From positions 1 to 48,220 of the forward strand of contig VGRB01000001.1 of assembly GCA_016875475.1 (NCBI GenBank): a DNA stretch of 48,220 nt, read 5' to 3'. A model generated the notes under the pieces. That model was given only the letters and a program-made list of their open reading frames with translations, had not been told where the DNA came from and made no database searches. The position numbers and the translations under genes were made by a program. Numbering within the stretch: position 1 is the stretch's first letter; every line of letters begins with the position of its first letter. Shown here one piece after another: positions 2,589-20,014 of this stretch. Origin of the DNA: Deltaproteobacteria bacterium (GTDB taxonomy: Bacteria; Myxococcota_A; UBA9042; DTJE01).

Positions 2589-2718
2589 GATATTAGCATG
2601 TCGCCTTGGCCCGGACACCTTCCTCCCGGCCGTCGGCGCTGGTTCGTGCGGACGCCGGGGGGGGGGCGAAGGCGGCCCCTGGGAGCCCCGGGAGGGGCAC
2701 GATCCGCGGAGGCGGCGA

Positions 2719-3039: not shown

Positions 3040-3062
3040 CGACGGCCCGGAGGGCTTTTCGA

Positions 3063-5267: not shown

Positions 5268-5268
5268 A

Positions 5269-5817
5269 ATGCCTGACGCGAAGAAGAGATACGCCATGGT
5301 CGTGGACACGCGGGGGTGCGTCGCGTGCAAGGCGTGCGTGCTCGCGTGCAAGGCCGAGAACGCGGTGCCGGACGGCCGCACGCGCGACTGGCTCGTCGAG
5401 GAGGTGCGCGGCCGGTTCCCGCGGCTGGCCGCCGAGAACCGGAGCGAGCGCTGCAACCACTGCGCCGGGGCGCCGTGCGTCGACGCCTGCCCGACCGGCG
5501 CGAGCCACGTCGCGGAGGGAGGGACCGTGCAGGTGACGCGCCACAAGTGCACGGGCTGCAAGGCGTGCATGGCCGCGTGCCCGTACGACGCGCGCTACGT
5601 GCACCCCGACGGGTTCGTGGACAAGTGCACCTTCTGCCTGCACCGCGCGCAGTACGGGAAGCTCCCGGCGTGCGTGGAGGTCTGCCCGACCGCGTGCCTG
5701 CACTTCGGGGACCTGTCGGACCCCGGGGCCGAGGTCTCGCGGCTGCTGCGGGAGCGGAAATGGAAGGTGAACCACCCGGAGACCGGGGCGAGGCCGAACG
5801 TCTATTTCCTCGTCTGA
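5269..5817 (+). CDS. 4Fe-4S ferredoxin-type electron-transfer subunit (PsrB-like)
   Basis: Several CxxCxxCxxxCP-type cluster motifs (CVACKACVLAC, CNHCAGAPCVDACP, CTGCKACMAACP, CTFC...CVEVCP). The start is 1 nt after the catalytic-subunit stop. Confidence 0.93.
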   Translation: MPDAKKRYAMVVDTRGCVACKACVLACKAENAVPDGRTRDWLVEEVRGRFPRLAAENRSERCNHCAGAPCVDACPTGASHVAEGGTVQVTRHKCTGCKACMAACPYDARYVHPDGFVDKCTFCLHRAQYGKLPACVEVCPTACLHFGDLSDPGAEVSRLLRERKWKVNHPETGARPNVYFLV

Positions 5818-5829
5818 GCGGAGGCGGCG

Positions 5830-6723
5830 ATGGACCCGACGATCGTGGAAACCGTTCACGGGCGTGCGAATCCGCTCGTGGACCCGACCCTCTCCGTGTG
5901 GGGATGGGAGATCCCGGTCTACCTGTTCCTCGGCGGGCTCGCAGCGGGGCTGATGATCCTGCCCGCCGCGCTGGAGCTTGCTCGCGGCCGGCGGCCGGAC
6001 TCCGTCTGGGTGCGGCTCGGGCCCCTGCTCGCCGCGGCGCTGTTGTCGCTCGGCATGGGCGCGCTCTTCCTCGACCTCGAGCACAAGCTCTACGTGTGGC
6101 GGTTCTACCTCGCGTTCAAGCCGGCGTCGCCGATGAGCTGGGGCGCGTGGATCCTGGTCCTCGTCTACCCGGTCGCGTTCCTCGCGTGGTGGGACCCGGC
6201 GTGGCTCCCCCGCCGCGCGGTGCTCTGGACCGCCGTGGCCGCGGGCGGGGCGCTCGGGATCTACACGGGCATCCTGCTCGGCGCGATGGCGGCCCGTCCC
6301 GGCTGGAACAGCGCCGTGCTGGGGCCGCTCTTCCTGGCGTCCGGCCTGTCCACGGGCGCGGCCCTGCTGCTCCTGCTGCCGCTCGACGCCCGCGATCGGC
6401 ACGCGCTGGTCCGCATCGACGCGGTCGCGCTCGTCGCCGAGGCCGCGCTGCTCGGCGTGCTCCTGATCGGGTTCGCGTCGGGCGACCGGACCGCGCACCT
6501 CGCGTTCGAGCACCTGACCACGAGGAACTGGGCGAGCGCGTTCTGGTCGCTCGTCGTGGTCGCGGGCATCTCGGTCCCGCTGGCGTTCGAGGCGCTCGAG
6601 ATACGGCGGAAGCTCGCGTTCGTCGCGGTCGCGCCGGTGCTCGTGCTGGTCGGGGGGCTGTCGCTCCGGTTCGTGCTGGTGCTGTCGGGCCAGGCGTCGA
6701 GCTTCGACGAGTTCCCGGGCTGA
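5830..6723 (+). CDS. NrfD/PsrC-type polytopic membrane quinol-interacting subunit
   Basis: 297 aa with about 8 hydrophobic helices. N-terminus reads WGWEIPVYLFLGGLAAG, typical of the NrfD family. Third gene of the reductase triad. Confidence 0.9.
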   Translation: MDPTIVETVHGRANPLVDPTLSVWGWEIPVYLFLGGLAAGLMILPAALELARGRRPDSVWVRLGPLLAAALLSLGMGALFLDLEHKLYVWRFYLAFKPASPMSWGAWILVLVYPVAFLAWWDPAWLPRRAVLWTAVAAGGALGIYTGILLGAMAARPGWNSAVLGPLFLASGLSTGAALLLLLPLDARDRHALVRIDAVALVAEAALLGVLLIGFASGDRTAHLAFEHLTTRNWASAFWSLVVVAGISVPLAFEALEIRRKLAFVAVAPVLVLVGGLSLRFVLVLSGQASSFDEFPG

Positions 6724-6734
6724 GGAGGTGCGTG

Positions 6735-7253
6735 ATGACGCAGGAGAAGCCGTTCTGGAACCCCTACGTGGGCGGGTTCGTGCTGGGGCTGGTGCTGCTC
6801 GGGTCGTTCCTGGTGGTCGGGAACGGGCTCGGCGCGTCCGGCGCCGCGAACCGGCTCGGGGTCGGCGCCGCGTACCTGGTCGCGCCGGAGACCGTGGCCG
6901 CGCACGAGGTGTTCGGCGAGTACGCCGGGCCCGGGAAGAACGTGCTCGACGACTGGCTCGTCTTCGAGGTGCTCGGGGTCTTCCTGGGCGGGGCGCTCGG
7001 CGCGTACTCGGCCGGGCGGATGCGGCGCGGGATCCAGGGCGGTCCGCGGCCCCTCGCGCCGTGGAAGCGGCTCGCGTTCGCGTTCGCGGGCGGTCTCCTG
7101 ATGGGGGTTGCGGCGCGGCTCGCGCGCGGCTGCACGTCCGGCCAGGCCCTGACCGGCGGGGCGCTGCTGTCCGCGGGGTCGTGGGCCTTCATGATGATGG
7201 TGTTCGCGGGCGGCTACCTGGCCGCCCCGTTCCTCCGGAGGCAGTGGCGATGA
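6735..7253 (+). CDS. YeeE/YedE-family sulfur-compound transporter, first half
   Basis: Terminal 172 aa of ORF 5316..7253. GGAGG lies 6 nt upstream of ATG 6735. Hydrophobic protein with the conserved ARGCTSGQ motif. Confidence 0.85.
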   Translation: MTQEKPFWNPYVGGFVLGLVLLGSFLVVGNGLGASGAANRLGVGAAYLVAPETVAAHEVFGEYAGPGKNVLDDWLVFEVLGVFLGGALGAYSAGRMRRGIQGGPRPLAPWKRLAFAFAGGLLMGVAARLARGCTSGQALTGGALLSAGSWAFMMMVFAGGYLAAPFLRRQWR

Positions 7254-8476
7254 GCGAGACGGCGATGACCCTGTTCCCGCTGTACGCTGCGGACGCGTTC
7301 GGCTACGAGGCATTCCTGGTGCTCGGCACGCTGATCGGCGTGGCGTTCGGCTTCGTGCTGGAGCGGTCGGGCTTCGGGCGGGCGCCGGTGCTCGCGGCCC
7401 AGTTCTACGGCAGCGACACGCGCGTGCTCAAGGTGATGTTCACCGGCATCGTGACCGCGCTGGTCGGCATGACCGTGCTCGACGGCGCGGGCCTGCTCGA
7501 CATCTCGCGCCTGGTCATCCCGGAGACGATCCTGTGGGCCCAGGTCGCGGGCGGCCTCCTCCTCGGCGTCGGCTTCATCGTGTCCGGCTACTGCCCGGGC
7601 ACGTCGGTCGTGTCGGCCGCGTCGGGGAACGTCGACGGCCTCGTGACCGTGGTCGGCGTCGTGGCGGGCTCGCTGGTCTTCGGCGTGGCGTGGCCCGTCT
7701 TCCAGCCCCTCCACGACGCCGGCGCGATGGGCGTGGTCCGCCTCCCCGACCTCCTCGGCGTGCCCCAGGCCCTGCTCGCGTTCGGCGTTTTCGCGATGGC
7801 GGTCGGCGCCTTCGGTTTCGGCGAGTGGGTCGAGCGCGCGCTCGGCAGCCGCCGCGGCGAGCCCGTGCCCGCCTCCCAGCCGCGCGTGCGCAACCGCGTG
7901 CTCGCGGGCCTGGGCGGCGCGTCCGCGATCGGGCTCGCGCTGCTGCTGGTGCCCGGCGATGGCCCGGGCGGCGCCCCGGGCGACGCACCGCCCGGCGCCG
8001 CGCCGCGGCACGTGGCCTCGATCGAGCCGCTCGCGCTGGCCGCCGACCTCGTCGAGCGGCCATGGTCGCTGTCCCTGGTGGACGTCCGTCCGGCCGCCGA
8101 GTGCGAGGCCGCCCGCATCCCGGGCGCGGCGTGCCTGCCGGCCGACGACCCCGCCGGCTTCCTCGCGGCGCTCCCCCCCGCGCGCACGCTCGTGCTGTAT
8201 GCCGCCGCGGACCTGCCGCCCCCCCCCGACGTCGGCTCGCGCTTCACGGGTCCGGTGGCCGTGCTGCGGGGCGGCTTCGACGCCTTCCGGTCCGCGGTGC
8301 TGGCAAAGCCGGAGCTGCCCGCGGCCCCGGACGCCGCCGCGGTCGCGGCGTTCCGCACCCGCTCCGCGCTGCACGGCCATTTCACCGGCGCGAAGACCCA
8401 GGCCCCCCCCGCGGCCGTCCCCGCGCGCAGCGGCGCGCCCGCGCCCGGCGGGAAGAAGAAGGGCGGGGGGTGCTGA
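7250..8476 (+). CDS. YeeE/YedE-family transporter second half fused to a rhodanese-like domain
   Basis: ATG 7250 overlaps the previous stop (ATGA). Membrane part carries the SGYCPGTS motif. C-terminal rhodanese fold (LVDVRPAAECEAARIPGA...LVLYAAAD...LRGGFDAF) has Ala where the catalytic Cys normally sits. The protein ends KKKGGGC. Confidence 0.85.
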   Translation: MSETAMTLFPLYAADAFGYEAFLVLGTLIGVAFGFVLERSGFGRAPVLAAQFYGSDTRVLKVMFTGIVTALVGMTVLDGAGLLDISRLVIPETILWAQVAGGLLLGVGFIVSGYCPGTSVVSAASGNVDGLVTVVGVVAGSLVFGVAWPVFQPLHDAGAMGVVRLPDLLGVPQALLAFGVFAMAVGAFGFGEWVERALGSRRGEPVPASQPRVRNRVLAGLGGASAIGLALLLVPGDGPGGAPGDAPPGAAPRHVASIEPLALAADLVERPWSLSLVDVRPAAECEAARIPGAACLPADDPAGFLAALPPARTLVLYAAADLPPPPDVGSRFTGPVAVLRGGFDAFRSAVLAKPELPAAPDAAAVAAFRTRSALHGHFTGAKTQAPPAAVPARSGAPAPGGKKKGGGC

Positions 8477-8495
8477 GAAGTCGTCTCCGCATCCC

Positions 8496-8522
8496 GGCGT
8501 TCCCCCTTTCCACGGGGACGCC
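8496..8522. terminator. stem-loop between the convergent operons
   Basis: GGCGT(T)CCCC (8496-8505) pairs with GGGGACGCC (8514-8522): 9 bp with one bulge. It lies between the stop at 8476 (+) and the stop at 8525 (-). There is no clear U-tract. Confidence 0.35.
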
Positions 8523-8524
8523 GC

Positions 8525-8746
8525 CTACGCCCGCAGCACCTCGATGACCACGAGGCCGTCATCCCGGCGCTCGGCCGCGGTCACGCGGTGGCCGGCCGCC
8601 TTCAGCGACGACATGACCGCCTTCAACGCGTCCGCCCGGAGCGTGACCCGCAGCGTCCCCCCGGCCGCGAGCAGGTCCATGGCCCTGCCGACCTTCACGT
8701 GCGTCAGCGGGCAGGCGTCCCCGGTGATGTCCAGCTCCTGCGTCAT
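8525..8746 (-). CDS. TusA/SirA-like sulfur-carrier protein
   Basis: 73-aa terminal part of ORF 8525..9313: MTQELDITGDACPLTHVKVGRAMDLL...TLRV. This is the TusA fold with its conserved Cys. The start overlaps the upstream stop (ATGA). Confidence 0.85.
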   Translation of the reverse strand: MTQELDITGDACPLTHVKVGRAMDLLAAGGTLRVTLRADALKAVMSSLKAAGHRVTAAERRDDGLVVIEVLRA

Positions 8747-9606
8747 GGCGCCTCCCCCACGTGCGCGACCAGGGCCTCGACCCCGGTGCGCGCGACGGTG
8801 TCCGCGAACCGCTCGCCCGGGCGACCCCGCGCCCGGAAGAAATCGAGCACCGCGGCCGCGACGCGAACCACCTCGGCCGGGTCGCGCAGGACCGGCAGGA
8901 TCGGCACCCCGAGCCGCGGGATCCGGCCGAACTTGCCGCCCGCGAAGAGCCGGTACCCGCGCACGGCGACGGCCATGGTGCCGGTCGGGCACGCGTCGGT
9001 GCAGTCGCCGCACCCGATGCACGCGGACGCGTCGAGGTGCACCGCGACGCCCTCCTCGACGCGGATCGCCCCGGTGGGGCACGCGGCCGCGCAAAGCCCG
9101 CAGTACGTGCAGTCGTCGCGCCGCCATCCGGGCTCGACCCACCCCTTGATGCCGAGGTCGTTCTCCTCGACCTTGATGCAGTTGTTGGCGCAGCCGGTCA
9201 CGGCGAACTTGAACTTGTGCGGAACGGGCCTGCCGTAGAAGGCGCAGTCGAGGTCCCGGGCCAGGGCCGGCGCGTCGATCAAGCCGCTCGGGCAGACGGT
9301 GCACCCCTGGCACGCGGTGATCGTGCGGACCGTGGGGCCGCAGGTGCCCACGCCGACGCCGGAGGCGGCCAGGAACTCCTTCACCGCCGAGAGCGACTCG
9401 AGCGGGACGAACGGGATCTCCACGCCCTGCCGGGTGGTGAGGTGGACCTCGCCGCGACCGAACCGGGAGGCGGCCTCGTGGATGGCCGCGAGCTGCCCGG
9501 CCGAGACCTGCCCCCCGACCACGTGGAGGCGGACCGAGAACAGCCCGGCCTCGCGTTGGCGCATCATGCCGCCCTTCTTCAACTCCCTCCAGTCGGTCTC
9601 GCCCAT
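8743..9606 (-). CDS. small sulfite/nitrite-reductase-like sirohaem-[4Fe-4S] protein with ferredoxin insert
   Basis: ATG at 9606 with GGAGG 6 nt upstream; the track's 9621 start is a TTG. CX5C (CQGCTVC) and CX3C (CANNC) sirohaem-cluster motifs. Two ferredoxin motifs (CTYCGLCAAACP, CIGCGDCTDACP). 287 aa. Confidence 0.85.
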   Translation of the reverse strand: MGETDWRELKKGGMMRQREAGLFSVRLHVVGGQVSAGQLAAIHEAASRFGRGEVHLTTRQGVEIPFVPLESLSAVKEFLAASGVGVGTCGPTVRTITACQGCTVCPSGLIDAPALARDLDCAFYGRPVPHKFKFAVTGCANNCIKVEENDLGIKGWVEPGWRRDDCTYCGLCAAACPTGAIRVEEGVAVHLDASACIGCGDCTDACPTGTMAVAVRGYRLFAGGKFGRIPRLGVPILPVLRDPAEVVRVAAAVLDFFRARGRPGERFADTVARTGVEALVAHVGEAP

Positions 9607-9607
9607 C

Positions 9608-10570
9608 TCAGACCTCCACAACGCCGTCCGTGCCGACGAAATCCGTGAAGCAGGACGCGTACTTGAGCGCGCTGTCCGGCGAGATGCAGACCGCCACGGC
9701 GCCCTTCGGAAGCCCGGCGTTCAGCGCTGCCCAGACCACCGCGCCCGTGGACGGTCCGACCAGCAGCGCGTCCTCGCGGGCGAGCCGGATCGCGGTCCCG
9801 TACGCGTCGGCGTCGGACACGCGTACGGTCCGGTCGATCAGCGACTCGTCGAGGATCTCGGGCTTCCGGCTCTCCTGGAAGTTCTTGAGCCCCGAGATCC
9901 GGTGCCCCTTCTCCGGCTCGATCGCCAACACGCTCACGGCCGGGTTCCGCTCCTTCAGGTACCGCGCGACCCCCGTGATCGTCCCGCAGGTCCCGTACCC
10001 GGCGAGGAAGTGCGTCACGCGCCCGGCCGTCTGGTCCCAGATCTCCGGCCCGGTGGTCTCGTAGTGGGCGCGCACGTTGTCCGGGTTCGAATACTGGTCC
10101 GGCATCACGTAGCGGTCGCGGGTGGACTCGCTGTTCACGAACGACCGCGCGAGCGCGATCGCGCCGTCCTTCGGGTGGTCGATCGGGCACAGGTCGTCCG
10201 GCGTCTTCCAGACCTCCGCGCCGAGCACGCGCAGCAGGGTCAGCTTCTCGGGCGGCGCACCCGAGGGGAGGGTGACCGAGCACGGCACGCGGCGCAGGTT
10301 CGCCATGGCGGCGAGCGCGATCCCGGTGTTGCCGGACGTCGGCTCGATCAGGCCACGGCCCGCGAGGCGCCCGTCGCGCTCGAGGCCGTCGAGCAGGGCG
10401 CGGGCCGTCCGGTCCTTGACCGACCCGAACGGGTTCATCCACTCGAGCTTGGCCCAGACCTCCGGGCCACCTTCCGGGACGCAGCGCCGCACCCGGACAA
10501 GCGGCGTCGGGTTCTCGCGCGAACCGATCAACTCTGTCACGTCGTCGAAGACCCGCCCGGTCGCATCCAT
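9608..10570 (-). CDS. PLP-dependent cysteine synthase family protein (CysK/CysM-like)
   Basis: Starts at MDATGRVF (cat at 10568-10570, GGAGGGG upstream). PLP-lysine motif NPFGSVKDR, then TSGNTG and a glycine loop GTCGTITG. 320 aa. Confidence 0.9.
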   Translation of the reverse strand: MDATGRVFDDVTELIGSRENPTPLVRVRRCVPEGGPEVWAKLEWMNPFGSVKDRTARALLDGLERDGRLAGRGLIEPTSGNTGIALAAMANLRRVPCSVTLPSGAPPEKLTLLRVLGAEVWKTPDDLCPIDHPKDGAIALARSFVNSESTRDRYVMPDQYSNPDNVRAHYETTGPEIWDQTAGRVTHFLAGYGTCGTITGVARYLKERNPAVSVLAIEPEKGHRISGLKNFQESRKPEILDESLIDRTVRVSDADAYGTAIRLAREDALLVGPSTGAVVWAALNAGLPKGAVAVCISPDSALKYASCFTDFVGTDGVVEV

Positions 10571-11793
10571 GATCCGTCCCCTCCGGCGCACTGCCCCACG
10601 AAAACGACGGCCGGCGACCGGACCCGCGCCTCGCGCGCGAGCGCCGGGAGGTCGGCGAGCCGGCCCCGGACCACCCGCTGCGACGGGCGGCTGGCGTTCT
10701 CCACGATCGCGCACGGCGTCGCCGTGTCGAAGCCGGCCGCGAGCAGGCCCGCCACGCACTCGCCGAGGCGTCCGACCCCCATGTAGATCGCGACGGTCCC
10801 GTCCCTCGGCAGCCGGGACCAGTCCACCGCCGGGGCGGCGCCGCCCGCGCCGTGACCGGTCACGAACGTGACCGACGACGCGCGGTCGCGGTCCGTCAGC
10901 GGGATGCCCGCGGCGGCGGCGCAGGCGCTCGCGGCGGTGACGCCGGGGACCACCTCGAACGGTACCCCGGCCGCGGTGAGGCGCGACGCTTCCTCCGCCC
11001 CCCGCGAGAACAGGAGGGGATCGCCGCATTTCAGCCGGACGACCGACCGTCCCTCCCGCGCGTGCCGGACCATGGACGCGTCGATCGCCCGCTGGCGCCC
11101 GGCCGCGCCGTGGCCGGGCGTGCCCGGTGGCGCCCGGTGGCACTCCCGCACGGCCCGGTGCGCGAGCGCGAGGACCGGCTCCGGGACCAGGCCGTCGTGG
11201 ATCACCACGTCGGCGGTGCGGAGCACGCCGAGGGCGCGGACCGTGAGCAGGTCCGGGTCGCCGGGTCCCGCGCCGACGAGGTAGACCGTGCCGGGACGCG
11301 CCTCGCGGTCGGGTCGTCGCCGGCCGCGCTCGACGCGGACCGCGAGTTCGGCGCGGTGGTCGTCGAGGTACTCCCTGACCGCCCGCACCGCACCCGGGTG
11401 CTCCCCGCCCGACGACACCGCGACGGTGAGTCCGTCCGCCCGCACCACGCCAGGCACGTGGAACGTGCTTGCCTCCGGGTCGTCCGCGACGTTGACCGGC
11501 AGGCCCGCGCGCCTCGCTTCGGCCGCGGCGGCCCGGTTCACGGCCGCGTCGGACGTCGCGACGAGCACGATCGTGGCACCGGCGAGGTGCCCGGGCCGGA
11601 ATGGCTCGCGGACCGCGGCGATCCGCCCCGCGTCCGCCTCCCGCTCGAGCGCGTCGCAGAACGAGGGGGCCACGACGGTGACGCGGCCGCCGGCCTCCAG
11701 GAGGGCCCGGACGCGGCGCTCGGCCACCCGCCCCGCCCCGACGACGACGGCGTTCACCTCCCGTCCGACGAGCGTGATGGGGAACGCGGACAC
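10537..11793 (-). CDS. cysG: sirohaem synthase (precorrin-2 dehydrogenase/ferrochelatase fused to uroporphyrinogen-III C-methyltransferase)
   Basis: N-terminal Rossmann VVGAGRVAERRVRALLEAGGRVTVVAP (CysG N-domain). C-terminal SUMT motifs VYLVGAGPGDPDLLT and LKCGDPLLF. Confidence 0.9.
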   Translation of the reverse strand: MSAFPITLVGREVNAVVVGAGRVAERRVRALLEAGGRVTVVAPSFCDALEREADAGRIAAVREPFRPGHLAGATIVLVATSDAAVNRAAAAEARRAGLPVNVADDPEASTFHVPGVVRADGLTVAVSSGGEHPGAVRAVREYLDDHRAELAVRVERGRRRPDREARPGTVYLVGAGPGDPDLLTVRALGVLRTADVVIHDGLVPEPVLALAHRAVRECHRAPPGTPGHGAAGRQRAIDASMVRHAREGRSVVRLKCGDPLLFSRGAEEASRLTAAGVPFEVVPGVTAASACAAAAGIPLTDRDRASSVTFVTGHGAGGAAPAVDWSRLPRDGTVAIYMGVGRLGECVAGLLAAGFDTATPCAIVENASRPSQRVVRGRLADLPALAREARVRSPAVVFVGQCAGGDGSWMRPGGSSTT

Positions 11794-11819
11794 CCGGGTC
11801 CTCCCTCCAACCAGGACGG

Positions 11820-11849
11820 ATTCTGCCCGATCGAACCCGGGCGTGTCAA
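11820..11849 (-). promoter_or_regulatory. sigma70-like promoter of the cysG operon
   Basis: The minus strand reads TTGACA (11844-11849), an 18-nt spacer, then CAGAAT (11820-11825). GGAGGGAG (11801-11808) and the start codon at 11793 follow. Confidence 0.45.
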
Positions 11850-11920
11850 GCTAATCATTGAGTAAACAAATAAACATCTGCCACTAGGGCCCCGAGCTAA
11901 CAGGGCACAACAAAAACACC

Positions 11921-11950
11921 TTGACAGCATGACTCCGAAATAGCGATAAT
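11921..11950 (+). promoter_or_regulatory. sigma70-like promoter facing the cytochrome operon
   Basis: TTGACA (11921-11926), an 18-nt spacer, then GATAAT (11945-11950). It lies inside the only markedly AT-rich stretch of the region. Confidence 0.5.
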
Positions 11951-12032
11951 AAACATGACCATTGCAGTAAGCAATGGGTGGGGGTGGCGGTTGGCACCGA
12001 TCGACGGGGTCGGGACGAGCCGGTGGCCGGGG

Positions 12033-12263
12033 ATGCTCGAGCTGCCCCGCGCGGAGTTCGAGTCCCTCGGGCCGTCGGAGGGGGAGCCCGTCGTCCTCCG
12101 CGTCCGCGACGCGCGCACGTACCCGGCGGACGGGCAGGACTGCCGGATTCGAGGCCGCGAGAGGGAGCGATGGGCAGCCAGGCCTGTACGGATGTCGCCA
12201 GCGGAGTCGACTATTGATCAGCCGTCGCGACACGTCCCGAAGGATGTTCATTTGTTCCGGTGA
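12033..12263 (+). CDS. possible small protein in the long leader (hypothetical)
   Basis: The frame of ORF 11955..12263 has almost exclusively G/C third positions between about 12000 and 12135 (MLELPRAEFESLGPSEGEPVVLRVRDARTYPADGQDC). That bias is lost afterwards. No recognisable family. It could instead be a structured leader. Confidence 0.3.
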   Translation: MLELPRAEFESLGPSEGEPVVLRVRDARTYPADGQDCRIRGRERERWAARPVRMSPAESTIDQPSRHVPKDVHLFR

Positions 12264-12404
12264 GTTCGGCACGCCGGGGGCGGGGCACGGCCGTTGCACT
12301 CTCCCCTCGCGGCGGGCCTGGAGCCGGGCGGACCGTGCCGCCCCGGTCTTGCGGCAGGGGCGCCCGGAAGGTTCGAGGAGCTTGTGAGGAACGGGAGGGA
12401 CGAG

Positions 12405-13193
12405 ATGAACGGATCGGGTGTTCACGGACGCGCGGCCGCGCTCGTCGCGGCGACCTGGTGCGCGCTGCTCGCAGGCTGCGGCGCGCACCACGAGGAGGGC
12501 CAACAGATGGTCCTCGAGTACGACCCCGCCGTGCGCTTCCCGGCCGCGTTCACGAGCGCGTCGGGGGGGAAGGTGACGATCTCCACGATGACGATGGCGG
12601 GGGGGACGCACCGCGACACGGCCGCGCTGTTCGAGGCGGCCGCGGACGGCTGGGGGTACCGCGCGTGGGCCCGGGCGGGCGACGCGTGGACCGACCTCGG
12701 GCCGTTCGTTCCGGGCACGGACCTCGTGGCGGACGCGGCCGCGGGCGCCGCGCTGCAGGTGACCATCGAGGCGGCGGGCGCATCGCCGGCGGCGCCGTCG
12801 GCCGAGGTCGTGCTGTCCGGGACCGCCGGGGCGGGCCTCGCGTTCGGGACGCTCGACGCGCTCGCGTTCACGCCCGCCGGGGTCGAGGTGAGGGCGGGGG
12901 GCACGTCGGTCGACCTCGCCTGCCACGACCTGCCCGCGCTCCCCGCGGGGTTCCACTACGCGTTCTGGCTGACCGAGGTCGACGACGCGGGCACCGCCAA
13001 GGGCGCGCCCTTGGCGCTCGGCAAGGTCTCCCTGGCCGACGGGGGGCTCGCGGCGAGCGGCGTCGCCCTGCCGGAGCACCACGTCTTCGACCTGTCGATC
13101 GAGGCGGACCACGGCGCCGCGACGCGCTCGCCGCTGGTCTGCTTCCGGGGCACCCACGACGCGACCGCTCCCGGCGGCGGTCACGGCCACTAG
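12405..13193 (+). CDS. lipoprotein of unknown function, His/Gly-rich C-terminus
   Basis: ATG 12405 preceded by GGGAGGGA. Signal and lipobox (ALLAGC). Two similar halves. Ends ...APGGGHGH. First gene of the cytochrome operon. Confidence 0.75.
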   Translation: MNGSGVHGRAAALVAATWCALLAGCGAHHEEGQQMVLEYDPAVRFPAAFTSASGGKVTISTMTMAGGTHRDTAALFEAAADGWGYRAWARAGDAWTDLGPFVPGTDLVADAAAGAALQVTIEAAGASPAAPSAEVVLSGTAGAGLAFGTLDALAFTPAGVEVRAGGTSVDLACHDLPALPAGFHYAFWLTEVDDAGTAKGAPLALGKVSLADGGLAASGVALPEHHVFDLSIEADHGAATRSPLVCFRGTHDATAPGGGHGH

Positions 13194-13208: not shown

Positions 13209-14756
13209 ATGTCAGGATCGAATCCCTGGTTCCGCAACCGTGCCCTGGCGATCCTGGCCGGGGCCGTCGCGGTCGTGACCGCGCCGCGGGAGGTCTCCGC
13301 GATCCCCGCGTTCGCGCGGAAGTACCGCACGAGCTGCGCCACCTGCCACGTCGCGTTCCCGAAGCTCAACGCGTTCGGGGAGGCATACCGGATCGCGGGC
13401 TACCACGTCCCGGGGGGGGACGAGCAGTTCGTGAAGGACGAGCCCGTCGAGATGGGCAGCGAGGCGTGGAAGCGCGTCTGGCCGAAGGGGATCTGGCCTT
13501 CGAGCATCCCGTGGATCCCCCCGGTGGCCGTGCGCGCGACCGGGGGCTTCGTCTCGGACCTGACCGGCCTCGGGGAGTCCTCGAACCCGGACGGGAAGCA
13601 CTCGTTCGTGTTCCCGGCCGCGCTGAACCTGTACGCGGCCGGCACGCTCGCCGAGGACGTCTCGCTCTGGTCCGGCGTCCACCTGTTCCGGAACGGGGAG
13701 TGGGGCGAGCTCGGGAAGCTGCACCTGTCGTTCTCGAACCTCCTCGACCGGTGGGTGCCGAGGCAGCTCTTCAACCTGCGGATCGGGCTGTTCGTGCCTG
13801 GGTCGGTCGCGTTCGACCACCACAGGAACGTCACGTTCGGCACGCCGATCTTCGCGACCGCGAACGCGATCGACGGCGTGCCGGGGGGCATCGGCCACGC
13901 GCACGGGTCCGGCGGAGCCGCCGGCGGGCACGGTGCGCACGGCGGAGGCGCGGCCGCCGGCGCGGTGTCGTACTCCGGCGCGTTCGCGCTCGGCTCGGCG
14001 CAGGTCGGCGCGGAGCTGTACGGGCTGATCCTGCCGCGCTGGGAGTACCTGGTCGGCGCGGTCAACGGGAACGGCGCCGCGATCGACGACAACAACGCCA
14101 AGGACGTCTATGGCCGCATGCGGGTGAAGATCGGCGGCATGGCGTTCGACGGCACCGACCCGGACGCGGGCGAGGCGCCGGCGGAAGCCGAGCCGCGCCT
14201 GCGGGACACGCAGGGGTGGGTGGACGACTCGGTCATCCTCGGAGCCTCCGGGTACTGGGGGCGGCACCGCACGTCGTCCACGACGACCACCGAGCACAAG
14301 CTTCTGGATTCGCTGGGGAACCTCGTCGTCCGCGCGGACGGGAAGGCGGCGACCGTGACCGAGGAGGCCACGACGTCGTGGAGCACCGACGTGATCCGGG
14401 CGGGAGGTGACATCCAGGCGACCTGGCGCGACTTCGAGCTGCTCGGCATGGCGGTATGGGGCCGCGACTCGAACCCTCGCGGCGACGGCGAGCCCGTGTC
14501 GTCGCTCGTCACGATGGGCCAGCTCGACTGGGTCACGCCGTGGCACTTCCTGATCTCCACGGTCCGCTACGAATCCGCGCTGTTCTTCGGCCACGCGGGT
14601 CACGCGCCGGACGATCGGCACCAGCTCGTCGCGGGCCTGACCGCGCTCGTGCGCGCGAACATCCGGATCCAGATCGAGGGGCAGGTCGATCTCGTCCGCG
14701 ACCCCGCACGGGAGGTGAGGGACCATGTGGCACTCGTCATCGATGCGGGCTTCTGA
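13209..14756 (+). CDS. outer-membrane beta-barrel protein with a single N-terminal c-haem motif (Cyc2-like fused cytochrome-porin candidate)
   Basis: Signal peptide, then IPAFARKYRTSCATCHVAFPKLNAFGEAYRIAGY with the protein's only CxxCH. About 470 aa of alternating-polarity sequence. His/Gly loop GHAHGSGGAAGGHGAHGGG. C-terminal ...VIDAGF, an OMP-type terminal Phe. Confidence 0.8.
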   Translation: MSGSNPWFRNRALAILAGAVAVVTAPREVSAIPAFARKYRTSCATCHVAFPKLNAFGEAYRIAGYHVPGGDEQFVKDEPVEMGSEAWKRVWPKGIWPSSIPWIPPVAVRATGGFVSDLTGLGESSNPDGKHSFVFPAALNLYAAGTLAEDVSLWSGVHLFRNGEWGELGKLHLSFSNLLDRWVPRQLFNLRIGLFVPGSVAFDHHRNVTFGTPIFATANAIDGVPGGIGHAHGSGGAAGGHGAHGGGAAAGAVSYSGAFALGSAQVGAELYGLILPRWEYLVGAVNGNGAAIDDNNAKDVYGRMRVKIGGMAFDGTDPDAGEAPAEAEPRLRDTQGWVDDSVILGASGYWGRHRTSSTTTTEHKLLDSLGNLVVRADGKAATVTEEATTSWSTDVIRAGGDIQATWRDFELLGMAVWGRDSNPRGDGEPVSSLVTMGQLDWVTPWHFLISTVRYESALFFGHAGHAPDDRHQLVAGLTALVRANIRIQIEGQVDLVRDPAREVRDHVALVIDAGF

Positions 14757-15363
14757 CGGTCTCGTGGCGGTCCTGGCCGCGGCGGTGGCGGTCGGACTCG
14801 CGGGGGAGGCCGCGGCGCAGGGCTCGATCCGCGGCGCGGTCAAGGCGACGGGGGTGCGCCGGCCCGACAACGTGGTCGTCTACCTGAAGTCCGTGCCGGG
14901 CAGCCACCCGCCGCCGTCGGCCCCCGCGATCATGGACCAGAAGGACTTCGTGTTCCTGCCGCACGTGCTGCCGATCGTGCGCGGGACGAAGGTGCGCTTC
15001 CTGAACAGCGAGCCCAAGGCGCAGCACAACGTGTTCTCGCCGGACGCGGTCGCGGACAAGGTGAACCTCGGCACCTACCCCCCCGGACAGTCGCGCGACC
15101 ACGTGTTCAACAAGACCTGCGGCGGCAAGGGTACCTGCGTCGCGGCGCTGCTGTGCAACGTCCATCCGGAGATGAGCGCGTACATCGTGATCCTGGAGAA
15201 CCCGTATTTCGCGGTCACGGACAAGGGCGGCGCCTTCGAGATCCGGAACGTCCCCCCCGGGACGTACGAGCTGGTCGCCTGGCACGAGAAGCTGAAGGAA
15301 GCTTCCACGAGCGTGACCGTGGGCGCGGGCGAGACCCAGGTGAGCCTGAGCCTGTCGCGCTGA
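14725..15363 (+). CDS. periplasmic cupredoxin (type-1 copper, amicyanin-like loop) with CarboxypepD_reg-like C-terminal domain
   Basis: GGAGG lies 9 nt upstream of ATG 14725. Signal peptide present. Cu ligand pattern H (AQHNVFS) ... C-x2-H-x2-M (LCNVHPEM). The tail FEIRNVPPGTYELVAWHEKL is typical of the Ig-like regulatory domain. Confidence 0.85.
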   Translation: MWHSSSMRASDGLVAVLAAAVAVGLAGEAAAQGSIRGAVKATGVRRPDNVVVYLKSVPGSHPPPSAPAIMDQKDFVFLPHVLPIVRGTKVRFLNSEPKAQHNVFSPDAVADKVNLGTYPPGQSRDHVFNKTCGGKGTCVAALLCNVHPEMSAYIVILENPYFAVTDKGGAFEIRNVPPGTYELVAWHEKLKEASTSVTVGAGETQVSLSLSR

Positions 15364-15381: not shown

Positions 15382-15912
15382 ATGGCATCGGACGCGGACG
15401 CACGCATGGACCGGCGCGAGTTCGGGGCGCGGGCGCTCCGGGCGGGGTGGTGGACGCTCGCCGCGACGGGGGCCGCGGCAACGTGGGCGACCGTGCGGTT
15501 CTTCGTCCCGCGCGCGACGTACGAGCCCCCCGCGCGGTTCGTCGCGGGCCGGCCCGCGGACTACGCGGTCGGCGAGGTCAGCGTAACGCACCTCGCCGCG
15601 CAGCAGGTCTGGATCGTTCGCGACGAGCAGGGGATCTACGCGCTCGTGGCGCAGTGTACCCACCTCGGGTGCCGGCCGAACTGGCTCGCCGAGGAGCAGC
15701 GGTTCAAGTGCCCGTGCCACGGGAGCAACTTCGACCGGTCGGGGAAGGTGATCGCCGGGCCCGCGCCGAAGCCGCTCCGCAGGGCCGCGATATCGCTCCT
15801 CCGCGACGGCCGGATCCGCGTGGACCGCTCGGAGCAGGCGGACCTGGCCGAGGCGCTGCACCGGCCCGGGTTCCTGCTGACGGCGGAGGCGATCGCGCAG
15901 GCGGGGGCGTGA
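15382..15912 (+). CDS. Rieske [2Fe-2S] subunit of a cytochrome bc-type complex
   Basis: TAT-like N-terminus ([11 protein letters not shown]). Rieske boxes CTHLGC and CPCHGS. Confidence 0.93.
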
Positions 15913-15913
15913 G

Positions 15914-16660
15914 ATGGGATTCCGGCAGGGCCACGTCTGGCGCTCGATCTTCCGGGTGGGCCTGCCCTCGGACCGGCGCGGACGGCTGCGGGTGGTGCTG
16001 GCGAACTTCTTCCTGCACCTCCACCCGACGAAGGTGCCGAGGTCCGGGATCCGGCTGACCTACACGTTCTGCCTCGGCGGGCTGTCCGCGTTCCTGTTCG
16101 TGCTGCTGACGGTCACCGGCGTGTTCCTGATGTTCTACTACGTGCCCGACACCGGGCGCGCCTACGCGGACATGAAGGACATCGGGTACGTGGTGCCGTT
16201 CGGCCGGGTCATGCGGGCCGCGCACCGCTGGGCCGCGCACGGCATGGTCGTGACCGTGATCCTGCACATGACGCGCGTGTTCCTGACCGGGTCGTACAAG
16301 CCGCCGCGCGAGTTCAACTGGGTGGTCGGGGTCACGCTGCTCGTGCTGACGCTGCTGCTGTCGTTCACCGGCTACCTGCTGCCGTGGGACCAGCTCGCGT
16401 ACTGGGCGATCACGGTCGGCACGAACATGGCTGCCGCGGCGCCGGTGGTCGGCCACGAGGGGCCGTTCGGGCACCCCGCGGGCGCGCGCGTGGACTCGGA
16501 CCTGCGGTACCTGCTCCTCGGCGGAACCACGGTCGGCCAGAACGCGCTGCTGCGGTTCTACGTCCTGCACTGCGTCGCCCTGCCGCTGGCCGCGGTGGTG
16601 CTGATGGGGGTGCACTTCTGGCGGGTGAGGAAGGACGGCGGGATCTCGCGGCCGTTGTGA
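15914..16660 (+). CDS. cytochrome b (b6-like N-terminal half)
   Basis: 248 aa with 4 helices. Conserved RxxHRWxAxxMV...HMxRVF and [15 protein letters not shown] motifs. The start is 1 nt after the Rieske stop. Confidence 0.93.
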
Positions 16661-16683
16661 GGGAAGCGGTGGAGGAACGCGCG

Positions 16684-16767
16684 GGAACGGGGGCGGGGGC
16701 AGGGGCAGGGCCGGGAGCGGGTACGGGCACGGGGATCGGGACGGGGATGGGGACGGGGACGGGGGAG
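16684..16767 (+). repeat. 14 tandem GGN-NNN hexanucleotide units, in frame with the downstream gene
   Basis: gga acg ggg gcg ggg gca ggg gca ggg ccg gga gcg ggt acg ggc acg ggg atc ggg acg ggg atg ggg acg ggg acg ggg gag. Translates as GTGAGAGAGPGAGTGTGIGTGMGTGTGE. Confidence 0.9.
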
Positions 16768-16770
16768 GTC

Positions 16771-17445
16771 ATGGTCGAGACGTGGCCTCACCTCGTCTTC
16801 ATCGAACTGCTGGCCATGCTGATATGCACGGTCGCGATCGGGGCGTTCTCGCTCGTGGTCGAGGCGCCGCTCGAGTCGATCGCGAACCCCGGCTACACGC
16901 CGCCGATCGCCAAGGCGCCGTGGTACTTCGTCGGGCTCCAGGAGCTGCTCGTCTGGTTCGACCCGTGGATCGCGGGCGTGATCGTGCCGGGGGTCATCAT
17001 CCTCGGGCTGATGGCGGTCCCGTACCTCGACCGCGAGCCGGACCACGTGGGGCTGTGGTCGCCGCGCCGGCGGCCGGTCGCGTGGTCGATCTTCATCTTC
17101 GGCCTCGCCCTGTGGTTCGGGCTGATCGCGGTCGGCACCTGGGACCGCGGCCCGCACTGGGCGTGGTACTGGCCATGGGAGTCCTGGGACGTCGAGAAGC
17201 CGCCGGTCGCCACCACCACGGACCTGCCGCCGTGGGTGGGGATCCCGGCGGTCCTCGGGTACGTGGCCGGCGGCATCGCGCTGCCCGCGGTCATCCGGCC
17301 CGGGTTCCGGCGCCGGCTCGGCTGGCCGAGGTACCTGCTGGTGACGGCGCTTCTGCTCGGGATGCTGGCCGTGCCGTTGAAGATCGCGATCTGCCTCGGG
17401 CTCGACGTGCACTACGTGCTCGTGACCCCGTGGTTCAACCTGTAG
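16771..17445 (+). CDS. cytochrome b C-terminal half / subunit-IV-like protein
   Basis: MVETWPHLVFIELL...AKAPWYFVGLQELL (PEWYF-type motif), membrane helices. An in-frame GTG at 16669 preceded by GAGGGA may be the true start. That would add the Gly-Thr/Ala repeat as an N-terminal tail. Confidence 0.85.
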   Translation: MVETWPHLVFIELLAMLICTVAIGAFSLVVEAPLESIANPGYTPPIAKAPWYFVGLQELLVWFDPWIAGVIVPGVIILGLMAVPYLDREPDHVGLWSPRRRPVAWSIFIFGLALWFGLIAVGTWDRGPHWAWYWPWESWDVEKPPVATTTDLPPWVGIPAVLGYVAGGIALPAVIRPGFRRRLGWPRYLLVTALLLGMLAVPLKIAICLGLDVHYVLVTPWFNL

Positions 17446-17486
17446 GGCGGTCCGGCCGGAAGCCGGCCCCCGGGGGGGATCCGGAC

Positions 17487-19562
17487 GTGAGCGGTGACGA
17501 TCGCACCGGAGATGCGGGCACTTCCGTCGATCCGGTCGCGCCGGTGTCCGTCGGCCGGCGCGTGCTCTTCCTGGTCTCGTCCGCCGCGCTCGCCGCGGTC
17601 ACCGGCGCGACCGTGCTGGACGAGGTCCGGCCCGCGTGGTCGGGCCACTGGCTCGACGCGCAGGAGCGGCTGGCCGTCGCCGGGGTCGAGGACGCGGAAG
17701 GGGCGGTGCCGGTCCGCGTGCCGCAGCTCCATGTGCCGGCGCTCGGCGTGGTCGACCGCTGCGGCGCCTGCCACGCGGGCACGGACCGCCCGGAGCTGGC
17801 CGGCGCTCCCGCTCCGCTCGCGACGCACCCGGGCCCGATGCTCGAGCTGCACGACCCGGAGAAGGTCGGCTGCACGCCGTGCCACGACGGCCAGGGGCGG
17901 GCGACGCGGCTCCCGGACGCGCACGGATCGGTCGCCCACTGGGAATCCCCGCTGCTGGCGGGCCGGCTTGTCCAGGCCGGGTGCGGCCGGTGCCACGACC
18001 GGGCGACCGTCGCCCGCGCGCCCGACCTCCGGCGAGGCGTCGCGCTGATGGATCGCCTCGCCTGCTTCGGCTGCCACGAGATGCCGGGGGCGGGCGTCCG
18101 CGGCCGGGTGGGTCCGGAACTGACGTACGCCGCGGACCGGGCCTCGCCCGCCTGGCTGCTCGCGTGGCTCCGCCGCCCCGCGGACCTGCTCGCGACGCCG
18201 CGCATGGCCGACTTCGGCTTCTCCGAGCGCGACGCCGCCGACATCGTCGCGTACCTGCTCTCGTTCAGGGGCCGCGCGGGCCTGCCCGAGGCGGGCGGCG
18301 CGCTCGAGTCCGCGTCGGACGCGGCGCTCGACCGCATGTACGAGGCGGGGGGGAAGACCTGGCGGACCGCCCGGTGCGTGAGCTGCCACGCGATTGCGGG
18401 CACGGGCGGGACGCTCGGGCCGGACCACGGCCGCATCGGCGAGAAGCTGTCGGTCGAGGCGATCGCGGCGTGGATCGCGGACCCGGAGCGCTTCCTGCCG
18501 GGCACGCGCATGCCGCGGTTCCGGCTTCCGGAGGGCGAACGGCTCGCGCTCGCGTACCACATGAGCGAGGAGATGAAGGACCCGGCCGCGGCGGAGCGGC
18601 TGGCCGAGGTCGCGTCGCGCGCGGACTCGCTCCTCTCCTCGGCCGACGCCGCGCGCGGGCGCACGCTCGTCCACTCGCTCGGCTGCCTCGGGTGCCACGC
18701 GGTCGCGGGCGTCCCGGACGCGCGCCCCGTCGGGCCCGACCTGACGCGCTTCGGCGAGAAGGAGGTCGGCCGGCTGCCGTTCAAGGCGGGGTGGGACGGG
18801 CCGCGGACCCGCGAGGCGTGGACGCGGGCGAAGCTCGAATCGCCGCGCTCCGGAGGCGAGACCCTGATCATGCCGACTTCCCCGATCGCGAAGCAGGACC
18901 TCGACGCGCTGCTCGTCGCGGTGCTGTCCCTGACCGCGCCCGCGCCGGCGTCCGCGCAGGCCGACCCTCCCCGCCCGGCCGGGCCCGCGTACCCCCCCGG
19001 GCCCGCCGGTGCGCTCGTCCGGGACCTGAAGTGCCTGACCTGCCACGCGCTCGGCGGGAGCGGCGGCACGCTCGCGCCCGACCTGACCGCGGAGGGGAGC
19101 CGCGTGCAGCCGCGCTGGCTGTTCGACTTCCTGCGGGAGCCGTACGAGATCCGGCCGCTCCTGGTCGAGCGGATGCCGCGCTTCTTCCTTCCGGACGCGG
19201 AGGCGGAACTTCTGACGACGTGGCTCGGGGTCGCGTACGCTCGCGACGGCCTGCCCGAGGTCCCGGCCGATCCGGCCGAGGCGGCGCGCGGCGAGACCCT
19301 GTTCGAGGACCTGAGGTGCCGCGGCTGCCACATCCTGGGCGAGCGCGGCGGCGCGGTCGGGCCGAACCTGTCCGACACGGGCAGGCGGCTCGATCCGCGG
19401 TGGACCGCGTGGCAGCTCACGGACCCGGCCCGTGCCGGCGCGGTTGAGCCGCGCATCGTCGGGTCGGCGGAGGACGCCCGCTCGCTGGCCGCGTTCCTGG
19501 CGACCCGCCGGGTCGAGACGGCGGCCCCTCCCGGAGGGCCGGAGGCTGGAGGCGCGCCATGA
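17487..19562 (+). CDS. membrane-anchored octahaem c-type cytochrome
   Basis: Eight CxxCH motifs: CGACH, CTPCH, CGRCH, CFGCH, CVSCH, CLGCH, CLTCH, CRGCH. N-terminal TM segment (RRVLFLVSSAALAAVTGATVL). The GTG start at 17487 is the first plausible in-frame start, so the start is uncertain. Confidence 0.85.
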   Translation: MSGDDRTGDAGTSVDPVAPVSVGRRVLFLVSSAALAAVTGATVLDEVRPAWSGHWLDAQERLAVAGVEDAEGAVPVRVPQLHVPALGVVDRCGACHAGTDRPELAGAPAPLATHPGPMLELHDPEKVGCTPCHDGQGRATRLPDAHGSVAHWESPLLAGRLVQAGCGRCHDRATVARAPDLRRGVALMDRLACFGCHEMPGAGVRGRVGPELTYAADRASPAWLLAWLRRPADLLATPRMADFGFSERDAADIVAYLLSFRGRAGLPEAGGALESASDAALDRMYEAGGKTWRTARCVSCHAIAGTGGTLGPDHGRIGEKLSVEAIAAWIADPERFLPGTRMPRFRLPEGERLALAYHMSEEMKDPAAAERLAEVASRADSLLSSADAARGRTLVHSLGCLGCHAVAGVPDARPVGPDLTRFGEKEVGRLPFKAGWDGPRTREAWTRAKLESPRSGGETLIMPTSPIAKQDLDALLVAVLSLTAPAPASAQADPPRPAGPAYPPGPAGALVRDLKCLTCHALGGSGGTLAPDLTAEGSRVQPRWLFDFLREPYEIRPLLVERMPRFFLPDAEAELLTTWLGVAYARDGLPEVPADPAEAARGETLFEDLRCRGCHILGERGGAVGPNLSDTGRRLDPRWTAWQLTDPARAGAVEPRIVGSAEDARSLAAFLATRRVETAAPPGGPEAGGAP

Positions 19563-20014
19563 AGGCCTTCGCGATCGCCGTGGCGGCGCTCCTGGCGACG
19601 GGGTGCGGCGGGGAGGAGCCCCCCCGGCCGGCGGCCGCTTCCACGACCGGGTCCGCGGCCGGGGCGATCGGTGCGGCCGAGGGCGCCGTCCTGTACGGCC
19701 GGTGGTGCGCCGCGTGCCACGGCGCGACCGGGCACGGCGACGGCATCACCGCGTCGCGTCTCGACCCCGCGCCCGCGGACCTCGCGTCCGGGGCGGCACG
19801 GGGCCTGACGGACGCCGGGATCGACGCGGTCGTCGCCGGCGGGGCCAGGGGGACCGGGAGGGCGGGCGTGATGCCGGCGTTCGGCAACACGCTTTCGCCC
19901 TGGAAGCGGCGCGACCTCGTCACGCACGTCCGGACGCTCCAGCGTGCCGCGGCAGCTGCAGCCGCAGCCGCCGCAGCCGCAGCCGCCCCCGAGGGCCCGG
20001 TCGCGCCGGACTGA
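19559..20014 (+). CDS. monohaem class-I c-type cytochrome lipoprotein with poly-Ala tail
   Basis: ATGA overlap with the upstream stop. Lipobox LLATGC. CAACH plus distal VMPAF. 14 consecutive Ala codons (19946-19987) near the C-terminus. Confidence 0.85.
   Translation: MKAFAIAVAALLATGCGGEEPPRPAAASTTGSAAGAIGAAEGAVLYGRWCAACHGATGHGDGITASRLDPAPADLASGAARGLTDAGIDAVVAGGARGTGRAGVMPAFGNTLSPWKRRDLVTHVRTLQRAAAAAAAAAAAAAAPEGPVAPD

Follow-up and report, generated by a model that had tools for sequence, protein, structure and literature searches.

What is a porin-sized protein doing with a single haem-attachment motif directly behind its signal peptide, and in which direction would it pass electrons across the outer membrane? 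The question is raised by a reading frame at 13209-14756 on the forward strand of contig VGRB01000001.1, a complete contig of a metagenome-assembled genome (MAG) that carries the label 'Deltaproteobacteria bacterium' and the locus tag FJ087_00080. The whole contig, 48,220 bp long and ~74% GC, was analysed and is called the window below. An original prediction, made from the DNA letters without database searches, had likened the architecture of the protein to that of the Cyc2-type iron oxidases. Here we find that the protein almost certainly belongs to the Cyc2 family of fused cytochrome-porins and that its gene is the second of eight closely packed, co-directional genes on the forward strand. 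The overall reading that we favour, at a probability of roughly 0.7, places this cytochrome-porin at the outer-membrane end of an eight-gene electron conduit, working most likely inward in the oxidation of Fe(II). The features of the protein are as follows.

13209-14756, forward strand: gene for the Cyc2-family fused monohaem cytochrome c-porin, 515 aa (assigned from motifs, conservation, an AlphaFold2 model, Foldseek and profile comparison)
13209-13301, forward strand: predicted Sec signal peptide, aa 1-31 (by inspection: Arg9/Arg11, hydrophobic ALAILAGAVAVV, cleavage after VSA31)
13302-13523, forward strand: short cytochrome domain, aa 32-105 (~75 residues), the most conserved region of the protein
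13299-13325, forward strand: AIPAFARKY (A31-Y39), an instance of the Cyc2-specific motif AxPxFAR[Q/K][T/Y]
13335-13349, forward strand: CATCH, the single c-type haem attachment site (C43, C46, H47), read from the DNA
13359-13367, forward strand: PKL (P51-K-L53), the PxL motif downstream of the haem site, with P51 and L53 at least 90% conserved
13524-14753, forward strand: 16-strand beta-barrel, aa 106-515, ending in Phe (DSSP on the AlphaFold2 model, Foldseek)
13794-14000, forward strand: long loop L3, aa 196-264, between strands 5 and 6 (strand positions from the AlphaFold2 model)
13893-13949, forward strand: His/Gly-rich stretch GHAHGSGGAAGGHGAHGGG, aa 229-247, with its GHAHG core at 13893-13907

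The reading frame opens with an ATG, preceded by a GGGAGG-like ribosome-binding site 8-9 nt to the 5' side, and encodes 515 aa, in agreement with the porin-sized protein first described. The signal peptide, ending in VSA as had been proposed, is followed directly by IPAFARKYRTSCATCHVAFPKLNAFGEAYRIAGY, which holds the haem motif, and the protein has no cysteines besides C43 and C46. After cleavage the N-terminus would read IPAFARKY, in parallel with the mature LPSFARQT of Acidithiobacillus ferrooxidans Cyc2, whose signal peptide occupies the equivalent position. Searching 5.8 billion proteins yielded 146 homologues, 417-552 aa long, every one an unnamed 'hypothetical' protein without Pfam domains, and conservation was read from a 115-sequence alignment. 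The protein itself also turns up in SRR16108671, SRR16108672 and JGI 3300020603. C43, C46 and H47 are invariant, exactly one CxxCH is present in 115/115 homologues, and the C-terminal Phe of the ...VIDAGF ending, taken earlier as a barrel-type aromatic terminus, recurs in 96/115; for these reasons the haem motif cannot be a chance occurrence. In 73/115 homologues, too, the two cysteines of CxxCH are the only ones. The motif lies ~36-50 residues from the N-terminus of the homologues, a position consistent with signal peptides, so that both properties on which the original prediction had made itself depend, a conserved CxxCH and signal peptides among the homologues, find support across the family.

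Conservation is concentrated around the haem. In the cytochrome domain the commonest residue at a position has a mean frequency of 0.69, versus 0.38-0.40 in the barrel. Within the Cyc2-specific motif P33, R37 and Y39 are invariant, and A31, I32, A34, F35 and K38 are conserved to at least 90%. The invariant or nearly invariant polar residues of the family are Y39 (100%), K38, K88 and K298 (each at least 94%), Y301 and Y349.

The original prediction would have been undone by a soluble fold. Modelling with AlphaFold2 on the family alignment gave instead a confident barrel (mean predicted local distance difference test, pLDDT, 87; predicted template modelling score 0.84), in which DSSP assigns 16 long beta-strands to residues 106-514. 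Two regions are of low confidence: residues 29-39, which hold the conserved motif and presumably pack on a haem that the model does not include, and residues 233-247 in the His/Gly stretch (pLDDT < 50). When the model was compared with the PDB using Foldseek, the top 50 matches were almost all outer-membrane beta-barrel proteins, mostly 16-strand porins, at E ~1e-8. Among them OprP (2o4v) ranked fifth (E = 1.8e-8), the same protein that has been reported as the template for Cyc2 PV-1 (PMC8406198).

Is the protein then a true Cyc2? The published description of the family comprises a signal peptide, one CxxCH, a length of at least 365 aa, a porin, the motif AxPxFAR[Q/K][T/Y] as 'unique to Cyc2', and a downstream PxL (PMC8406198). 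We applied the fused cytochrome-porin criteria of McAllister 2020, Keffer 2021 and FeGenie, with a length of at least 365-375 aa and PxL ~4 residues past CxxCH. The protein has a signal peptide (by inspection), a single N-terminal CxxCH, the AxPxFAR[Q/K][T/Y] motif, PxL, 515 aa and a predicted 16-strand OprP-like barrel. Scans against Pfam and NCBIfam gave no match to it, and a sequence search of the PDB returned only spurious matches to Gly-rich linkers.

For direct comparison, the sequence of A. ferrooxidans Cyc2 (B7JAQ7; AfCyc2) was taken from the optically character-recognised supplement of Jiang et al. and checked by its 94% identity to a database Acidithiobacillus 'cytochrome C'. BLASTP aligned the two proteins over the N-terminal 58 residues only (31% identity, E = 1e-9), and pairwise similarity confined to the N-terminus has also been reported between Cyc2 clusters in the literature. 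A tblastn search of plasmids likewise found the N-terminal motif only, in uncharacterised proteins of Ralstonia and Methylocystis that were used as stepping stones. The family profile matched AfCyc2 with a probability of 97.8% (hhalign, E = 7.6e-13), and comparison with a 65-sequence alignment of the AfCyc2 clade raised this to 99.7% (E = 2.5e-25) over 371 columns, nearly the full lengths of both. Because the published motifs, the predicted barrel and this near full-length profile match agree, we have very little doubt, on sequence and model grounds, that the protein is a bona fide Cyc2 fused cytochrome-porin, and the Cyc2-type architecture first proposed is upheld.

Within the family, the protein carries FARKY versus the FARQT of the AfCyc2 clade, and its close relatives come from Zixibacteria, Ignavibacteria, Omnitrophota, Acidobacteriota and Planctomycetota, the same taxa from which FeGenie 'cluster 3' cyc2 (the Cyt572 cluster) has been reported. 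Motif and taxa together suggest the Cyt572-containing cluster, and probably not Cluster 1. The protein itself is thus an expected family member and no new type of system; such genes are routinely flagged as cyc2 in MAG surveys. By published description, Cyc2 PV-1 of the neutrophile Mariprofundus ferrooxydans (Cluster 1) and Leptospirillum Cyt572 share its architecture: at least 365 aa, CxxCH, AxPxFAR[Q/K][T/Y] and an OprP-like 16-strand porin. Similarity to AfCyc2, the outer-membrane Fe(II) oxidase of the rus operon, extends to signal cleavage just before xPxFAR, CxxCH ~11 residues into the mature protein, PxL, a barrel of ~16 strands, a C-terminal aromatic residue, and the company of a cupredoxin and a link to a bc complex. 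The two differ around the haem, with FARKY.TSC.TCH here and FARQTG..C..CH there, and in their hosts, since A. ferrooxidans is an acidophile and the host here is a high-GC, Myxococcota-like MAG from a neutral environment.

The company that the gene keeps provides the second line of evidence. Junctions between the eight genes are tight or overlapping, and the remaining elements of the operon are listed below.

11921-11950, forward strand: candidate sigma-70-like promoter, TTGACA-18-GATAAT (11/12 matches; a consensus match only, with 0.1 sites expected by chance in the region)
12405-13193, forward strand: lipoprotein, 262 aa (lipobox LLAGC; weak RskA_C-like domain; GGGHGH at the C-terminus)
13173-13190, forward strand: C-terminal GGGHGH tail of the lipoprotein
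14725-15363, forward strand: type-1-copper cupredoxin joined to a CarboxypepD_reg beta-sandwich, 212 aa, secreted
15382-15912, forward strand: Rieske [2Fe-2S] protein (Pfam Rieske E = 6.9e-15; NCBIfam PetC-like matches)
15914-16660, forward strand: cytochrome b, b6-type (split form; Pfam Cytochrome_B E = 1.6e-41; cytb_ExtP 281 bits, cut-off 290)
16774-17445, forward strand: subunit IV-like protein, the C-terminal half of cytochrome b (Pfam Cytochrom_B_C; NCBIfam ExtQ and b6f subunit IV below cut-offs)
17481-19562, forward strand: membrane-anchored octahaem cytochrome c, 693 aa as translated from 17481 (eight CxxCH; Pfam Cytochrome_C7 and four class-I cytochrome c domains)
19559-20014, forward strand: small monohaem cytochrome c, probably a lipoprotein, whose start overlaps the preceding stop codon by 4 nt and which has a counterpart in homologous operons

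The 212-aa protein encoded immediately after cyc2 is annotated only as 'carboxypeptidase regulatory-like'. A type-1-copper ligand set, H101...C144-x2-H147-x2-M150, is invariant in 67 sequences of this protein family, and Pfam Copper-bind matches 3/6 syntenic homologues; the window protein itself falls below the reporting threshold for PF00127. Many homologues are named 'plastocyanin' by the Joint Genome Institute. Its AlphaFold2 model (pLDDT 91.7) resembles amicyanin, plastocyanin and pseudoazurin in Foldseek, with template modelling scores of 0.7-0.78 normalised to the target. Given the invariant H/C/H/M ligands, the Copper-bind matches of the homologues and the predicted cupredoxin fold, we identify it as a periplasmic blue-copper electron carrier, and it is likely to be the electron partner of Cyc2.

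The pairing is widespread. We compared 80 species-level genomes from more than 10 phyla that hold a relative of the Cyc2-family protein; at 56 of the loci the sequence extends at least 5 kb downstream. The cupredoxin gene is found with cyc2 in 75/80 genomes, three of the five misses being truncated contigs, and in 70 of the 75 it lies directly downstream on the same strand (median gap 172 nt). Rieske and cytochrome b genes are present in 27/80. Relatives at 62% identity have the same eight-gene order between unrelated flanking genes, and the genes downstream of the module in the window are not conserved with it either. We therefore think it quite probable that the eight-gene conduit is a functional unit. 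A literature search found no description of a linkage between cyc2 and a cupredoxin/CarboxypepD_reg protein, although incomplete coverage makes this weak evidence; as far as the searchable literature goes, the near-universal cupredoxin/beta-sandwich pairing, together with the tiny H-x-H lipoprotein family described below, may be undescribed.

Related modules vary in content. Between the cupredoxin and Rieske genes, homologous loci L007 (10188-12140) and L091 (7956-9776) encode a ~600-650-aa FAD/NAD(P)-binding iron-sulfur oxidoreductase (Pyr_redox_2 and Fer4_20); this enzyme, found in several related modules and absent from the window, could link the module to a soluble reductant. Other lineages, again, encode differing small secreted proteins between cyc2 and cupredoxin, in L006 (9353-10447, 364 aa, a faint Pfam Iron_transport match) and L091 (6809-7333, 174 aa, no match), in what looks like a variable accessory slot analogous to that of the His-tailed lipoprotein in the window. 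Directly upstream of the cyc2-lipoprotein-cupredoxin-bc module of L091, positions 1-895 hold a three-domain multicopper oxidase and a sigma-54 two-component system, and a similar sigma-54 two-component system lies upstream in L006.

Three known systems offer points of comparison for the operon as a whole. In A. ferrooxidans the rus operon (cyc2-cyc1-cup-coxBACD-rus) and petI are separate, unlike the window, where cyc2, cupredoxin and bc genes share one operon. Unlike the rus operon, too, the 48-kb window has no haem-copper (aa3) oxidase genes, and a Rieske/cytochrome b complex is encoded instead. The cupredoxin here also differs from that of A. ferrooxidans in being joined to a CarboxypepD_reg beta-sandwich, and is amicyanin- or plastocyanin-like among the solved structures searched.

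Like the Geobacter sulfurreducens extHIJKLMNOPQS cluster, the window combines an outer-membrane barrel protein, periplasmic redox carriers and Rieske/cytochrome b in a single cluster. The NCBIfam equivalog cut-offs for Ext proteins are not reached (cytb_ExtP 281 versus 290, memb_ExtQ 35.9 versus 150, cytc_ExtS 83.8 versus 100), and by these scores the bc proteins of the window are close relatives of ExtP/Q/S and not equivalogs. The barrel protein is fused to a haem here, whereas ExtI is described only as porin-like; a cupredoxin and an octahaem cytochrome c stand against the 5-, 10- and 12-haem ExtKL, ExtN and ExtM; and there is no counterpart of the rhodanese-like ExtH. With MtrCAB, MtoAB and PioAB the locus shares the principle of outer-membrane electron transfer by a haem protein held in a beta-barrel. 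Those systems, however, wrap a 26-strand barrel around a separate decahaem protein, whereas here one polypeptide would supply one haem and 16 strands, and Pfam and NCBIfam scans found no MtrA/MtoA-like decahaem gene adjoining cyc2.

The original prediction had also drawn attention to His/Gly-rich, metal-binding-like stretches in the barrel and in the upstream lipoprotein. Both are present as quoted: GHAHGSGGAAGGHGAHGGG at aa 229-247, and a lipoprotein with the lipobox LLAGC that ends in GGGHGH. In the barrel, the stretch falls within L3, which strand parity in the 16-strand model would place on the extracellular or constriction-loop side. Residues 233-247 are probably a disordered, lineage-specific insertion, because the family alignment has 80% gaps there and model confidence is low. 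The GHxHG core (H230, H232) is kept in 32-33 of the 45 nearest relatives and in 18/83 genome loci from several phyla, and is missing from the remainder. No tracking of the L3 HxH with the bc module was seen, since the module is present in 6/18 HxH loci versus 24/65 without it. A distant Cyc2-like protein in an Acidobacteriota 'Marinacidobacterales' MAG (L086, 8001-9434) has an independently His/Gly-rich L3, GFGHGGGHGGGHGGGG, which suggests that His/Gly expansions recur in this loop.

The lipoprotein has a further His-rich stretch just past the lipobox Cys; its Pfam RskA_C score is 27.9 bits, below the 29.4 cut-off, and a sequence search of the PDB found no match. The gene is also called on other contigs. 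An exhaustive search of 1.84 billion representatives yielded 21 relatives, nine of them at E <= 1e-10. Of 15 sequences inspected, 14 have a lipobox-like signal-peptide Cys (the other starts after the Cys) and nearly all have H-x-H as their last residues, down to 26-35% identity, so that a C-terminal H-x-H is, from these sequences, the hallmark of a very small lipoprotein family. Homologues occur inside cyc2 modules as well, a distant member in the order cyc2 - lipoprotein - cupredoxin - Rieske - cytochrome b, and another relative adjoins the gene for a 1009-aa multihaem cytochrome. The idea that the His-tailed lipoprotein requires an HxH-bearing Cyc2 was rejected, as the Cyc2 of L091 has no such motif. 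The His core of L3 and the H-x-H lipoprotein are probably accessory metal-binding elements, which may supply copper to the cupredoxin or capture the metal substrate. The conserved motifs to which the metal-binding character first suggested may apply are the family-wide lipoprotein H-x-H and, within its subclade, the GHxHG core; residues 233-247 are not among them.

How would electrons move through such a conduit? We infer localisation, partner contacts, substrate and direction of flow from established biogenesis pathways, conserved synteny and analogy. The Sec system would export the protein, with cleavage after VSA31, a single c-type haem would be attached at C43/C46 with H47 as an axial ligand, and the ~410 remaining residues would form the 16-strand outer-membrane barrel ending in Phe. 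The ~75-residue haem domain would sit at or within the periplasmic mouth of the barrel, its single haem bridging the outer membrane. On one side the partner of the haem in electron exchange would be a small species outside the cell or entering the pore, most likely Fe(II), and on the other the periplasmic type-1-copper cupredoxin encoded directly downstream. The cupredoxin would in turn exchange electrons with the c-type cytochromes (monohaem c and membrane-anchored octahaem c), these with the Rieske/cytochrome b6-type complex, and the complex with the quinone pool. In the inward direction, Fe(II) would be oxidised at the cell surface and the bc complex, running in reverse, would reduce quinone, by analogy with A. 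ferrooxidans, in which Cyc2 -> rusticyanin -> CycA1 -> bc1 is the established logic of the 'uphill' branch. On the strength of this analogy we lean modestly towards inward Fe(II) oxidation as the main direction.

Several observations weigh against this reading. A search of the family alignment for a conserved Met or second His as distal haem ligand found none, and this particular Cyc2 clade has no characterised member. The position of the haem domain and the topology of the loops are themselves inferred. The cytochrome b is closest to Geobacter ExtP, whose cluster is linked to outward reduction. Finally, the 48-kb window has no terminal oxidase, nitrate reductase or carbon-fixation genes, and for that reason does not fix the direction of flow.

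The alternative that survives best is reversal of the same chain, which we nevertheless regard as unlikely: the Rieske/cytochrome b complex would oxidise menaquinol, and electrons would leave through octahaem c, cupredoxin and Cyc2 to Fe(III), Mn(IV), humics or metalloid oxyanions. Such a course is in keeping with the normal action of bc complexes as quinol oxidases and with an operon that has no oxidase gene. The 281-bit match of the cytochrome b to cytb_ExtP and the match of the c subunit to ExtS point the same way, as Geobacter ExtO/P/Q/S belong to a porin-plus-cytochrome cluster implicated in selenite and tellurite reduction. FeGenie, moreover, marks cluster 3 Cyc2 as 'possible iron reduction', the cluster is found in the iron reducers G. 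sulfurreducens, G. bemidjiensis and Rhodoferax ferrireducens, and the chemistry of A. ferrooxidans Cyc2 has been described as reversible. Yet the three Cyc2 proteins studied biochemically, from A. ferrooxidans, Leptospirillum (Cyt572) and M. ferrooxydans PV-1, were all assayed as Fe(II) oxidases, and the one haem of a narrow 16-strand barrel cannot make contact with an insoluble mineral in the manner of the MtrCAB decahaem chain. As carriers, type-1 copper proteins and Rieske centres usually have high potentials and would donate poorly to Fe(III) oxides at neutral pH.

Much less probable still is a substrate that is not iron. Another small redox-active solute able to enter a 16-strand pore (Mn(II), Cu(I), reduced sulfur species or quinone-like shuttles) might be oxidised or reduced, or the His-rich loop and the H-x-H lipoprotein might serve copper or metal homeostasis, since the L3 His core and the H-x-H tail resemble generic sites for divalent metals. 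Cyc2 homologues are present in many organisms not known to oxidise iron, and authors allow Cyc2 other roles in extracellular electron transfer. The His-rich features are, however, limited to subclades, while the haem domain, cupredoxin and bc genes form the conserved core, and all tested family members oxidise Fe(II). Neighbouring genes can be cited for this alternative as well, namely the multicopper oxidase gene that flanks the related module L091 and a PsrABC-like, YeeE, TusA and sulfite-reductase cluster upstream in the window; the latter is not conserved beside cyc2 in homologues.

An ordinary diffusion porin with an incidental or non-functional N-terminal CxxCH can be set aside as extremely improbable, for although general porins are the best structural matches and no Pfam or NCBIfam family covers the protein, the CxxCH, with the sole two cysteines, and its surrounding 35 residues are the most conserved part of it, the motif is kept without exception in 115/115 homologues, nearly the full length is homologous to A. 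ferrooxidans Cyc2, which contains haem, and the linkage to redox-protein genes is consistent.

Inward Fe(II) oxidation through the eight-gene conduit thus remains the reading that we prefer, and the rest of the window can be described around it. Upstream of the operon, the intergenic region 11794-12404 contains an AT-rich island (11845-11975) with divergent sigma-70-like promoter candidates, at 11921-11950 on the forward strand and 11849-11820 on the reverse strand. A leader of ~455 nt separates the promoter candidates from the ATG of the lipoprotein gene and contains an unannotated reading frame of 102 aa (11955-12263); an Rfam scan of the window, leader included, found no RNA family. Two repeats lie within the operon. 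The short spacer that follows the stop codon of the cytochrome b gene (16660) and precedes the start of the subunit IV gene (~16774) holds 13.8 tandem copies of the 6-nt unit CGGGGA (16682-16764), one frame of which reads as a Gly/Thr/Ala-rich repeat, and the monohaem cytochrome c gene (19559-20014) encodes a C-terminal run of 14 alanines from a GCC/GCA tandem repeat at 19946-19991.

Further upstream, positions 2568-11793 carry a sulfur-related set of genes: a PsrABC-like molybdopterin oxidoreductase with iron-sulfur and NrfD subunits, two YeeE/YedE (Sulf_transp) proteins, TusA, a small NIR_SIR sulfite-reductase-like protein, a PALP cysteine-synthase-like (CysK) protein and a CysG-like siroheme synthase. 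A functional tie between these genes and the operon was considered and rejected, as flanking genes differ in homologous loci. Elsewhere in the window, two giant secreted proteins, at 30180-35891 (1903 aa) and 36668-39511 (947 aa), contain Dicty_CTDC cysteine-rich repeats, of which 21 and 8 were detected, respectively; a protein of this repeat family is also encoded next to the homologous cyc2 operon in L005.

No marker gene for microbial iron oxidation is more widely used than cyc2, and 'cluster 3'-type homologues from non-classical phyla are counted in many metagenome surveys. The locus described here and its 80 relatives supply concrete, testable partners, in the form of a near-constant type-1 copper protein and a frequent Rieske/cytochrome b and octahaem complement, and thereby offer a route to ask whether these organisms carry out iron oxidation, reduction or both. 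Our most tentative suggestion concerns the partners themselves. It is possible that the blue-copper protein is the long-sought periplasmic acceptor of non-Cluster-1 Cyc2 in Acidobacteriota, Planctomycetota, Zixibacteria, Ignavibacteriota, Omnitrophota and Myxococcota, groups with no cultured iron oxidisers; if so, the H-x-H lipoprotein and the GHxHG core may be a dedicated metal-binding accessory, for substrate capture or copper loading, in this Myxococcota-like lineage.

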